Shown here: positions 1 to 22,032 of the stretch, one piece after another
Numbering within the stretch: the stretch's first letter is position 1
Layout of the letters: every line of letters begins with the position of its first letter
Virus genome (UHGV): UHGV-1660455
From: a virus
Strand: one strand, 5' to 3'
Length of the DNA: 22,842 nucleotides
Position numbers and translations under genes: made by a program
The notes under the pieces: model-generated
Told to the model about the DNA's origin: nothing
What the model saw: only the letters and a program-made list of their open reading frames with translations
The model's database searches: none

Positions 1-72
1 CGGATGAATATGATGATCTCATATCAGGAACTTGTTCGCACCTTCCCTAACTGTGTTATAGACTACTAAATA

Positions 73-16618: not shown

Positions 16619-16821
16619 ACGTAAAACCCTGCTGGCCCCCGGCGTCGTGATGTGGTGCCAACCTGAGATTCAAGGTCAGCAATATATTTTTTGAGATCGC
16701 TGACTGAAGTGGCTGTAAATTCCACTCTTCGACCGTCTTTCTGTACCGTCGCCACGCGCTTTCCCATCATCAGGTCATGTAACGCAGCGCGCGCGGCATC
16801 CAGTTCAGTCTGTGTTGCCAT
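16615..16821 (-). CDS. W: Head-tail joining / DNA stabilisation protein W
   Basis: 68-aa ORF, same length as lambda W, with the conserved ...[31 protein letters not shown]... core. Confidence 0.93.
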
Positions 16822-18743
16822 TATTCATCTCCAGATAATGCCCGCGCGTAATCCGCCAGGGTCTTGTTATTGTTACGGCTGCCTTCTTCCTCCAGCAGGC
16901 TGGCCAGAAGTGAATCAAGATTTAGCTGCCAGCGGGATATGCTTATACGCAGCGCCGCCAGTGCATAAACAAAGCAATCGAGCGCCTCATTTCGTCGTTT
17001 TTTGCTGTCCCAGACGATCTTTTTCTTTCCGTCTACCCATTTTTCCACCTGCTCTTCAGCTGTTAGTTGTTGGGCCTCTGTTAGATCGTAGATTTCTGGG
17101 TTATTCGGGAAATGAACCGCTCCCGCCAGCGGCTCGTCTCTTTGCGCCACCAGCGTGAAACGGTTATAAATCTGCTCTTTTGCGGTGTCTGTTCCTACCT
17201 CTGTGAGGTAAACACCATTCTTGTTACGCTTGCGTGGCATGTTCGCCACTGGCTTTCCATAAACCGACGCCCCCTTTATAGGGATCACACGAAACAGACC
17301 GTGTTTTTTTGAGCGGTTGTAGACGATGGTGGGATCAATGCCGCCAATATCCCAGCAAGTGCGGGATATAACCATTTCGAGACCGTTCTGGCGCTTATAC
17401 GTCCTGTTGATCGCTTCATCAACTCGAGCGAGAGTCGACTCATCATCATGACGACCCATAATGATAATTTTGTCGATAAGCCAGCTTTCCTCTCCCGGCC
17501 CCCATCCCCAAACACGCATTTCGTAACGGTCAAGCTGGGAGTCAATACCCGCTGTCAGATATGCCACTCGCTCCGGCACAGACGCTTCAAAGTGCTCTTT
17601 TCGTTCCGCTAAAACTTCAGCATCGGGTCGCTCACCTATTTTCGGTTCCCACGTTTCGCCCAGGGTCGTGTTAACGAAAGTTTTTCGCTTACCCGTATCA
17701 CCTTTTGTTTTTATCCAGTCCTTGACGATCTGCACCCAGGTTGTGAACGGGCTATATGCGGTCCAGATGTGGAATGTAACGCTATCAGGAGGTTCAATTT
17801 CGGTACCGGATGAAGAAAACCAGTTAAGGCCGTCTCGTGTCCAGATACCTGTTTCATCACAAATATACCTGGCCTCCAGAAATTCCAGCTCCTGTTGTTT
17901 AATCACACAGGCATTGTGTTCACAGAGGTAGTAAACGCTGGCAGGTTCTCCCGGAGACCATTTGAAGCCAAATGGTGTCTCTTTATCACCGAATTTCAGA
18001 TACTGCTCTTCCCCACAGTGTGGGCATGGAACATGGAACCGAAGAAAATGTTCAGACTCCTTAGCAGCTCTTTCTATCTGGCACGTACCTTTGACTTTCG
18101 GTGTAGATCCGCGAATGGATTTCGGCCATACAGAACCCTCAATACGCTTATCACCCAGAAAGGTGGGAGAACCTTCTTTCTCGATGTCATCATCGAAAGC
18201 GGCGAGCTCGTCGTAGCCAGCCACATCAACTGATTTTTCACGGTAGTTTTTTGCAGCCTTACCGCCCAGGCACCAGAAACCACGACCATTCGAGAAACGC
18301 TTCATGCTCAGCGTATTGTCCCGGTGTTTTTTACCGTACCAGGGAGCAAGCGCCAGCAACGTCGGAATATCACGAATGGTCGGTTCTACATGAGACTTCA
18401 TGAAGTTTTCAGCATCACCGTCGGTTGGTAACCATATTAGGGAGTTACGCTGTTTATGTTGGATGAAATATGCGTAAACGCCGAGCAACATTTTTGAGTA
18501 GCCGACACGAGCCGATTTAACGACATTCACCTCGCGAATATAGTCATTACCCATCGCATTCATAATTGCACGCTGAAATGGCAGTGTTTCCCAGCGCCCT
18601 TCCTGGTAGGCAGACTCTTTCGGGAGATAATAATTCTCATCTGCCCATTCAACTGCTGTTTGCGGTTGCGGCCGGTACAGCGAACGTAACCCCGCCCGCG
18701 CAGAGTGCTGCAGCCCCTTAACCTGACTGTTCGATATATTCAC
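16821..18743 (-). CDS. A: Terminase large subunit A (gpA; ATPase/endonuclease)
   Basis: 640-aa ORF near-colinear with lambda gpA (MNISNSQV... N-terminus; Walker and nuclease regions conserved). Confidence 0.97.
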
Positions 18744-19263
18744 TCAGCAACCCCGGTATCATTTCATCCAGCGCAGCTGCCTTGTTCATGGCCTTAATGA
18801 TGTCCTTCTTGAGGAAATCAATATGTCGGTTCTCCAGCTCCGGGAAGCGCCGCTGAACCGACAGAGGTATTCCATCGAGAATGCTGGCGATTTCTCCGGC
18901 TACCCGCGACAGCACGAACGTGCAGAATGCGGTCTCCACCACTTCAGCGGACTCTTTTGCATTTTTTAATTCCTGAGCGTCAGCCTGAGCTCGCGTAAGT
19001 CGGTGTCGCTCATATTCAATCGTGCCAGGTTGAAGATCGGACTCAGAAGCGATACGGAGATCTTCAACTTCCTTCCGCAACTTTTCATTTTCTATAGCTG
19101 CATCGCGCGCACTGTACCATTCGATTGCAGCAGCAGATTCAAAGAGAACCTCATTACCTTTGCCACCACCGCGGACAACCGGCATACCTTGCTCCTGCCA
19201 GTTCTGAATCGTTCGGACGCTTACCCCGAAAATTTCGGATAAGCGTTTTTTGTTAACCTCCAT
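18718..19263 (-). CDS. Nu1: Terminase small subunit Nu1
   Basis: 181-aa ORF, same length as lambda Nu1; N-terminal winged-helix region MEVNKK...IRTIQNWQEQGMPV.RGGGKGNEVL... essentially as in lambda. Confidence 0.96.
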   Translation of the reverse strand: MEVNKKRLSEIFGVSVRTIQNWQEQGMPVVRGGGKGNEVLFESAAAIEWYSARDAAIENEKLRKEVEDLRIASESDLQPGTIEYERHRLTRAQADAQELKNAKESAEVVETAFCTFVLSRVAGEIASILDGIPLSVQRRFPELENRHIDFLKKDIIKAMNKAAALDEMIPGLLSEYIEQSG

Positions 19264-19438
19264 GGCTTACTCCTGGCAAAAAACAGAGAAAGGAAACAAT
19301 CAACGGTAAACTTCCGTTTTCCTTGCTCAGCATTTCCTTTCTGGAGAGAGGACGTTTTTAACAAAAACAATGAGTAAACAAGAAGAAGAACGGAAATGGC
19401 ATAAACCAGAAAATTTTCATAAATAGCGAGAATCTGCG

Positions 19439-19450
19439 CGGACGCCGCCC
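19439..19450 (-). other. cos: cosN cohesive-end site (predicted 12-nt overhang 5'-GGGCGGCGTCCG-3' on the phage l-strand), with cosQ-like and cosB-like flanks
   Basis: The revcomp of 19400-19500 aligns by eye with the lambda right-end/left-end junction (...GTTACG|GGGCGGCG....|CGCTATTTATGAAAATTTTC.GG...), about 180 bp upstream of Nu1. Confidence 0.75.
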
Positions 19451-19511
19451 CGTAACAGGCCGGATCGCCGGAAAGGACCCGCAAACGATATTAATTATCA
19501 TTTGCATATCA

Positions 19512-20186
19512 TCATCGACGGCACTGCTGCCAGATAACACCACCGGGGAGACATTCCATCATGATGGCCGTGCGGACATAGGAAGCCAGTTCATCCATCG
19601 CTTTCTTGTCTGCTGCCATTTGCTTTGCAACATCCAGATCCGCACATTCAGCAGTATTTTTCAGCGCGTTATCAAGCACCGCTTCGAGATTGGTATCAAC
19701 GCCAGAGTTAACTTCAAATTTGTCGGCGCTGATGGTTACCTTGTTCTGTACTGGCTCATCACGCAGGATACCAAGGCTGATGTTGTAGACTTTGGTCACC
19801 GACTGAGGCTTTTCTAATTCGGCGGCGCGGATAGAACCACCAGCGATATTGGCTTCCTTGATGAATACCTCACCGTTCTTCACAACAAATGGTGAGGTAT
19901 CAATCTCAACGCCAAGCGTCATCGAAGCGCAATATTGCTGCTTACCAAAACGCGTATTGACCAGGTGTTCAACGGCAAATTTCTGCCCTTCTGATGTCAG
20001 AAAGGTAAAGTGATTTTCTTTCTGGTATTCGGTTGCTGTATGTCTGGTTTCAGCAAAGCCAAACTCGCGCAATTCAGCGGCACCAGATTTAGACGGCAGG
20101 TCACCTGACAGCAACGCGCCACGGAAAAAGAGCGAATACAGAACATCCGTCGCCGCACCGGATAACGTAATGATTTTCTGACCCAT
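19512..20186 (-). CDS. Conserved lambdoid-phage protein of unknown function, encoded just upstream of cos
   Basis: 224-aa ORF with an AAAGGAAA ribosome-binding site. It resembles proteins found at the right end of lambdoid genomes, but my recollection of the exact family is uncertain. Confidence 0.6.
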   Translation of the reverse strand: MGQKIITLSGAATDVLYSLFFRGALLSGDLPSKSGAAELREFGFAETRHTATEYQKENHFTFLTSEGQKFAVEHLVNTRFGKQQYCASMTLGVEIDTSPFVVKNGEVFIKEANIAGGSIRAAELEKPQSVTKVYNISLGILRDEPVQNKVTISADKFEVNSGVDTNLEAVLDNALKNTAECADLDVAKQMAADKKAMDELASYVRTAIMMECLPGGVIWQQCRR

Positions 20187-21176: not shown

Positions 21177-21194
21177 AACCACAGATTTGTGGTT
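21177..21194 (-). terminator. Weak hairpin (AACCACA-GATT-TGTGGTT) with a U-run on the minus-strand RNA, at the 3' end of the Rha-like gene
   Basis: 7-bp inverted repeat overlapping the stop codon by 2 nt; followed on the minus-strand RNA by UUUUGAG. Confidence 0.35.
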
Positions 21195-21879
21195 ATGCGG
21201 CCAAGCGGTGCTGCTCTTCGATAAGTGGCTGGCGGTGATTACGCTCGAACATGCCGCGCAGCACTTCTTTGCGTTGTTCGAAGTCCCACCCCATGCTGAT
21301 GAATACCGTGTTGGCGCGCTGTAGCTCGGTGATGCAGTGAATTTGTTCCGGCGTCAGGTAATCGCGGATCGGCTCTTTCTTCCCGATTTCGTGATGCACG
21401 CGGAACTTGGCCGCCGTCATGCCCAGCGCCAGTCGGTTAATCAGGTCAGCTTCGTTGCTGAAGTGATGCGGGGCGATCTGCTTACCCTGCGCCTCACGCT
21501 CATGCTTGATGGCATCGGTCATAGGCTTGTACTCCAGACGCGCCGAGTTGCGATCCATCTTCTTCTTCGCCAGCGCGCTGCGCATAGTGAAGAATTCATA
21601 TACCAAGCGCTTTTTGAATTCACGCACAACTTCATTGTTTCGCATGTAGGTGATCAACAGCGTGGTTTGCTGTTCGTTTAGCAGTGCTATTTCCTGCTTC
21701 TGCATGCCCCCATCCGTTTGAAAGGGTCGCATTTCAAATTCCACCCTTCCGAATTCTTCGAGGTCGCTTTTGTACTTCCTGATGAGTTGAATCACTGGCT
21801 TGTGATCCTTCATAACACCACTGGCGATCACTGCCGAGTTGGTGACCAGGTCTAGCTTCTTGATTTCTACTAATTGCAT
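21193..21879 (-). CDS. rha: Phage regulatory protein of the Rha family (antirepressor-like)
   Basis: The N-terminus ..LVTNSAVIASGVMKDHKPVIQLIRK.. fits the Rha-domain pattern (T.SS..IA...GK.H..V.R.IR). The tracked ORF runs to 21963, but the Met at 21879 has a plausible ribosome-binding site and begins the conserved domain. Confidence 0.7.
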   Translation of the reverse strand: MQLVEIKKLDLVTNSAVIASGVMKDHKPVIQLIRKYKSDLEEFGRVEFEMRPFQTDGGMQKQEIALLNEQQTTLLITYMRNNEVVREFKKRLVYEFFTMRSALAKKKMDRNSARLEYKPMTDAIKHEREAQGKQIAPHHFSNEADLINRLALGMTAAKFRVHHEIGKKEPIRDYLTPEQIHCITELQRANTVFISMGWDFEQRKEVLRGMFERNHRQPLIEEQHRLAA

Positions 21880-22032
21880 GGCGTGTACCTTTCTTTGAGA
21901 TGAACCTTTGCCGCACAGGAAATCAGCCCGTCGAGGCTCGCCAGCACTAACTGACTTCCTCAAAGGCTCATTTCAAAGGGTATGGTTCGACGTGGGTTGA
22001 ATGCGCTGCGGTGCGCGGTGAAATTCTGGCAT

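Follow-up and report, generated by a model that had tools for sequence, protein, structure and literature searches.

The minus strand of the window, by which we mean the whole 22,842-nt stretch of virus genome UHGV-1660455 that was analysed, carries a complete lambda-type cos made up of cosQ, cosN and a cosB with R3, an inverted R2 and R1, and reaching up to the start codon of Nu1 (19263). We estimate at roughly 90% the probability that this is an ordinary, working cos site that belongs to a lambdoid temperate phage with its late operon on the minus strand, and that combines an N15-type cosN allele with a cosB of the phi80/lambda type. Sequence identity, the spacing of the elements, the gene neighbours and the distribution of related sites are the observations on which this reading is built. 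Both the kind of cos and the cosN allele are known, and their combination is already present in deposited phage genomes.

A multiple alignment with lambda, phi80, N15, mEp237, HK225 and the prophage of E. coli ECONIH4 delimits the whole cos region, from the cosQ side to R1, at 19287..19505 (minus strand), with the conserved block starting about 55-60 bp upstream of the nick. A preliminary description of this DNA had called the cosQ, cosN and cosB region clearly homologous to lambda, and both BLAST, with 75% identity over 265 nt (E 6e-42), and the lambda spacing of the subsites bear this out. The interval originally singled out, 19400-19500, contains cosQ and cosN together with the first part of cosB; the three R sites follow immediately beyond its edge, as far as 19287. 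On the minus strand, 19500..19400 reads ...GGGTCCTTTCCGGCGATCCGGCCTGTTACG|GGGCGGCGTCCG|CGCAGATTCTCGCTATTTATGAAAATTTTCTGG..., and the stretch upstream of GGGCGGCGTCCG and CGCAGATTCTCGCTATTTATGAAAATTTTCTGG, as transcribed with its left context, is ...GCGGGTCCTTTCCGGCGATCCGGCCTGTTACG GGGCGGCGTCCG CGCAGATTCTCGCTATTTATGAAAATTTTCTGG... Because the 12-mer alone is statistically uninformative (2.45 matches with at most two mismatches are expected from shuffles, so its occurrence is within chance), a longer cosQ-cosN pattern was needed. A 45-nt degenerate pattern matched the window once with 0 mismatches, against an expectation of zero in 100 shuffles. The window as a whole had no exact match in any collection searched; its best match was an IMG/VR contig (99.2% over 9.7 kb), and E. 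coli chromosomes match it at 97% across cos.

Directly downstream of cos lie genes for a Nu1-type TerS and a gpA-type TerL. The TerS gene, whose product would be the reader of cosB, spans 18718..19263 (minus strand); its Nu1 ATG is at 19263, or bp 188 when counted from the left end, and its 181-aa product belongs to PHROG 57, terminase small subunit (E 3e-72). This protein is 94% identical to phi80 gp1, 87% to lambda Nu1 and 59% to N15 gp1, and it is 100% identical to the E. coli protein WP_000453626.1. TerL, by homology the endonuclease that nicks cosN, is encoded at 16821..18743 (minus strand, 640 aa); its identity is 94% with phi80 gp2 and 88% with both lambda A and N15 gp2. On the separate matter of how the reference proteins compare, BLASTP gives 87% identity between lambda gpA (711-2636) and N15 gp2 (567-2489); the figure of 64.9% quoted for the two TerLs (PMC4669245) disagrees with the deposited sequences.

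On the other side, the last gene before cos (19512..20186, minus strand, 224 aa; phrog_17079, E 2e-127) stands in the place of N15 gp59 and phi80 ORF x171.28, and its C-terminal coding sequence aligns with phi80. The genes upstream of cos comprise this N15 gp59/phi80 x171.28 homologue, a Rha-like regulator, an Rz-like spanin and an endolysin. The site is thus internal, between lysis/accessory genes and Nu1 with the head genes, from which it follows that the window is in prophage or circular order, in agreement with what had been proposed from the position of cos inside it. The gene of the Rha-like regulator or anti-repressor family, at 21193-21963 (minus strand; phrog_2657, E 1.5e-85), lies among small ORFs between the spanin gene and cos, a stretch that constitutes an accessory cargo region just upstream of cos. 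At 19505-19510 the similarity that mEp237, HK225 and several IMG/VR relatives show to the window breaks off abruptly. This break falls about 55-60 bp upstream of the nick, so a mosaic junction lies at the left edge of cos.

The same neighbourhood bears on whether the site is in use or is a relic in a defective or cryptic prophage. An unused relic would fit the fact that only a 22.8-kb late region is visible, in which no immunity, replication or integration genes were seen, and that isolated-phage records hold no identical sequence. We nevertheless consider a relic very unlikely, since every cos subsite is at lambda spacing and both Nu1 and A are homologous at full length to their counterparts in phi80, lambda and N15. 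The other large ORFs of the lambda-like late operon on the minus strand are likewise uninterrupted, over genes annotated in phage records from portal to central tail fibre. In addition, TerS and TerL are 100% identical to those of five independent IMG/VR contigs, and the viable phages mEp237 and HK225 carry the same cos.

Within the functional site that we favour, the cosQ heptamer GGGTCCT occupies 19480..19474 (minus strand, bp -30..-24), upstream of cosN at lambda spacing and at the same offset as in the right end of lambda. It is identical in lambda, phi80 and N15, and the 7-bp cosQ is described as highly conserved (PMC4669245). The 16-bp core of cosN, CGGGGCGGCGTCCGCG, lies at 19452..19437 (minus strand, bp -2..14) with CG flanks at both predicted nicks. 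Its arrangement CG|GGGCGGCGTCCG|CG with the conserved left half GGGCGG presents the two features, a conserved left half and CG at both nicks, by which a lambda-like cosN is recognized (PMC4669245).

The predicted 12-nt 5' cohesive end GGGCGGCGTCCG corresponds to 19450..19439 (minus strand), between a predicted top-strand nick at 19451|19450 (bp -1/1) and a predicted bottom-strand nick at 19439|19438 (bp 12/13). These positions were deduced by aligning the window with the termini of the N15 and phi80 records. When the whole window was searched, the opening base of N15 (AF064539) and that of phi80 (JX871397), at which each record annotates the start of the single-stranded 5' extension, both fell on 19450, and the final base of the N15 record fell on 19439. 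The hand alignment behind the preliminary description, which had proposed comparison with lambda and phi80 as a check, was therefore not shifted: its register held, and the 12-mer is not identical to that of lambda. The unannotated phage contig KM389287, flagged UNVERIFIED, is 100% identical to the window across cosB and ends at 19444; as evidence for a physical end this is suggestive at best, because the contig stops 6 nt inside the overhang and not at its first base.

Relative to lambda GGGCGGCGACCT, the predicted end carries A>T at bp 9 and T>G at bp 12, and the overhang had been transcribed correctly when it was first set apart from lambda's. Further substitutions had been reported in the adjacent 14 nt. 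Three are indeed found in bp 13-26 (bp 16, 18 and 21), all of them common to phi80 and N15, but the distance from the overhang to CGCTATTTATG is 10 nt (bp 13-22) rather than 14. The suggestion that the end is a new variant has to be given up: with T at bp 9 and G at bp 12 it is the N15-type allele, 12/12 identical to the annotated N15 end (AF064539, misc_feature 1..12), and the sticky-end feature of that record itself notes the difference from lambda's end. Feiss et al. (2015; PMC4669245) describe N15 ends as departing from lambda at bp 9 and 12. The end of phiD326, determined long ago, differs from lambda at these same positions 9 and 12, and deviations within cosN's right half (bp 7-12) are common among lambda-like phages (PMC4669245). 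A literature search on the 12-mer, phage D326 and KM389287 returned nothing relevant among the matches listed.

The allele recurs in other genomes. Phages mEp237 and HK225, as well as the E. coli ECONIH4 prophage, have the window's 12-mer within the same cos context, and 21-mer scans found the N15-type cosN in 49 IMG/VR contigs and the lambda allele in at least 120. An exact search for the N15-type 21-mer in genome_contigs, which holds one genome per species, gave no match; this says little, given that the same 21-mer occurs in those 49 IMG/VR contigs and in an E. coli chromosome. At IMG/VR loci, at least four types of cosB are found next to the N15 allele, including the window type, the phi80 type and the simple type of N15. 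Two further patterns were seen in these contigs. Three loci with an N15-type cosN (L021, L030 and L043) continue from about bp 40 into unrelated sequence (TTTCCTGAAACTGATGTCCGGTTC...) with no R-core matches, and their cosB class could be that of Monarch or represent some other specificity. Seven others (L061, L068, L070, L083, L092, L120 and L139) carry two lambda-type cosN 21-mers that are inverted with respect to each other and separated by about 527, 742 or 870 bp; vector contamination or an unusual element may be the cause.

The preliminary description had also raised the possibility that the altered cosN bases affect nicking symmetry or packaging specificity. cosN is characterized by rotational symmetry that is two-fold but partial, at 10/16 bp (PMC9026076); window and lambda both have 10/16, with the same five pairs. 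In this dyad bp 9 and 12 pair with bp 4 and 1, and both pairs are asymmetric in lambda as well, so the changed positions fall outside the symmetric pairs. Published experiments point the same way: yields on cosN-lambda and cosN-N15 were equal with lambda terminase and with the N15-specific enzyme, burst sizes of lambda and lambda-N15hy4 were alike on either allele and revealed no cosN specificity, and right-half cosN changes had minimal effect and were reported as phenotypically silent (PMC4669245). The mildness of right-half phenotypes is explained by cosB anchoring of TerL, for whose bottom-strand nick the sequence is largely immaterial (PMC4669245). Since bp 9 and 12 both lie in this right, cosB-proximal half, where the sequence is not under selection, the changes should affect neither cutting nor specificity.

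That the two substitutions do alter terminase nicking, in symmetry or in efficiency, or create a distinct packaging specificity is most improbable against this background. In its favour, the N15-type allele is a consistent minority in the IMG/VR counts given above, and mixed chromosomes with one lambda and one N15 end, although viable, give about fourfold fewer viable phage (PMC4669245), so that the allele has some genetic consequence in mixed packaging. Near-identical terminases are nevertheless found with both alleles: in IMG/VR, TerL/TerS pairs that are 99.3% and 99.4% identical to each other flank different cosN alleles. The intact symmetry, the published yields and the occurrence of such terminases beside either allele do not support a functional effect of the cosN allele.

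The cosB of the window is complex, with R cores at bp 55 (forward), 109 (inverted) and 155 (forward), in the order R3, inverted R2, R1. The predicted TerS-binding site R3, TGCCATTTCCGTTCTT, lies at 19401..19386 (minus strand, bp 50-65; extent and critical bases after PMC9026076 and PMC4669245) and has T, C and C at bp 56, 58 and 59, as in lambda. R2, AGAAAGGAAATG, at 19342..19331 (minus strand, bp 109-120), is inverted relative to R3 and R1, appears among the inverted repeats and sits at exactly the coordinates of lambda R2. R1, TTGTTTCCTTTCT, at 19299..19287 (minus strand, bp 152-164), was located by R-core matches and repeats. Between R3 and R2, at about 19381..19351 (minus strand), A/T-rich sequence homologous to the R3-R2 interval of lambda marks the putative position of the IHF site I1. 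The IHF consensus WATCARNNNNTTR has no match at one or fewer mismatches in cosB, and its matches across the window are not above chance, so I1 is assigned by position alone.

Between R2 and R1, two putative extra R-like matches overlap at 19327..19311 (minus strand, bp 124-140) in the orientation of R2. They read TTTCCTTGCT and CTTCCGTTTT, each with 1 mismatch to the R core. The pair is confined to the subgroup of the window, mEp237 and HK225, being present in the window and in 17 IMG/VR loci, all with an N15-type cosN; it is absent from lambda and degenerate in phi80. It could be an additional TerS site or the relic of a duplication. It is conceivable, if unlikely, that this subgroup has a quadripartite cosB in which bp 124-140 act as an additional TerS site that alters the geometry or stability of the initiation complex.

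The architecture of cosB also distinguishes the site from that of a phage-inducible chromosomal island (PICI) that hijacks the terminase of a helper. Enterobacterial PICIs do carry a lambda-like cosQ and cosN (PMC9026076), but their cosB consists of an equivalent of R3 only, followed by rpp (PMC9026076), whereas that of the window is tripartite. The window moreover has its own TerS and TerL and a long run of morphogenesis genes in lambda order as far as J. The probability of an island is negligible, and this reading is excluded by gene content.

Comparison with named phages places the lambdoid phage site more precisely. N15 shares with the window the 12/12 cohesive end, an identical sequence over bp 1-28 and the same cosQ heptamer, and only 6 differences separate the two over bp 1-45. 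In contrast, N15 has a simple cosB with a single N15-type R3 and without I1, R2 or R1 (PMC4669245, PMC9026076), no R-core matches were found in it by the R-core scan, and its gene 1 begins at bp 89; the window, with three R sites and the Nu1 start at bp 188, is not of this simple type. In phi80 the R sites are placed as in the window (R3 at bp 55, inverted R2 at bp 109, R1 near bp 156), bp 1-72 differ at only 8 positions, and the upstream gene and cosQ region are homologous. However, phi80 carries the lambda allele GGGCGGCGACCT and lacks the extra R-like matches at bp 124-140. Lambda (NC_001416) shares cosQ, the left half of cosN, the CG flanks, bp 56, 58 and 59 of R3, the position of R2 and TerS residues Q20 and E24; it differs at bp 9, 12, 16, 18 and 21, and overall cos identity is about 75%.

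The closest named relatives are mEp237 (JQ182730) and HK225 (JQ086371), whose cos sequences are 98% and 95% identical to that of the window over about 245 nt, with the same cosN 12-mer and a cosB that includes the extra R-like element. Their structural operons are 98.5% (mEp237) and 94.6% (HK225) identical to that of the window. They are unrelated to it upstream of about bp -56 and differ at two bases of the cosQ-cosN spacer. Both records open at the Nu1 ATG and leave cos unannotated, and thus contain no experimental information on the ends. By sequence, the element in the window is a mosaic, as in mEp237 and HK225, of the N15-type cosN allele and a complex cosB and terminase of the phi80 type.

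Features that discriminate packaging specificities are as in lambda: R3 bp 56, 58 and 59, and Q20 and E24 of TerS, at residues with roles in recognition and discrimination (PMC4669245). As specificity resides in cosB and TerS, and both are lambda/phi80-like here, a packaging specificity of the lambda/phi80 type is predicted. The Monarch-type cos, described as a complex cosB with an N15-like R3 and the N15 recognition helix of TerS (PMC4669245), is set apart on the basis of that published description, as the window has neither of these N15 features. Its R3 is lambda-like (TGCCATTTCCGTTCTT against GGTTGTTGTTTAATCA in N15), and the helix region of its TerS reads SVRTIQNWQEQ, compared with SVQAFDKWGVQ in N15.

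From these similarities we infer how the site would work, including the nick positions, the binding of TerS and IHF and the packaging specificity. By homology with lambda, TerS dimers would occupy R3 and, on the far side of an IHF-type bend, the inverted R2; R1 would be an accessory site. Bound TerS would anchor TerL, whose bottom-strand nick would separate bp 12 from bp 13 (19439|19438); the second nick, in the top strand, would fall between bp -1 and 1 (19451|19450). The two nicks would leave 12-nt 5' overhangs reading GGGCGGCGTCCG. The cosQ element, 30 bp upstream, would serve termination at the next cos. Packaging specificity would be set by cosB and TerS, both phi80/lambda-like rather than N15-like.

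The importance of the site beyond annotation is small, with the roughly fourfold loss of yield with mixed ends as the one documented practical effect (PMC4669245). For the phage itself, the result fixes the origin of packaging and the predicted ends of the virion DNA, with a left end at 19450 that reads leftward along the window and the overhang GGGCGGCGTCCG. For the lambdoid family, it adds support from natural variation to the published view of a right cosN half that is free to drift and reassorts among cosB/terminase modules.
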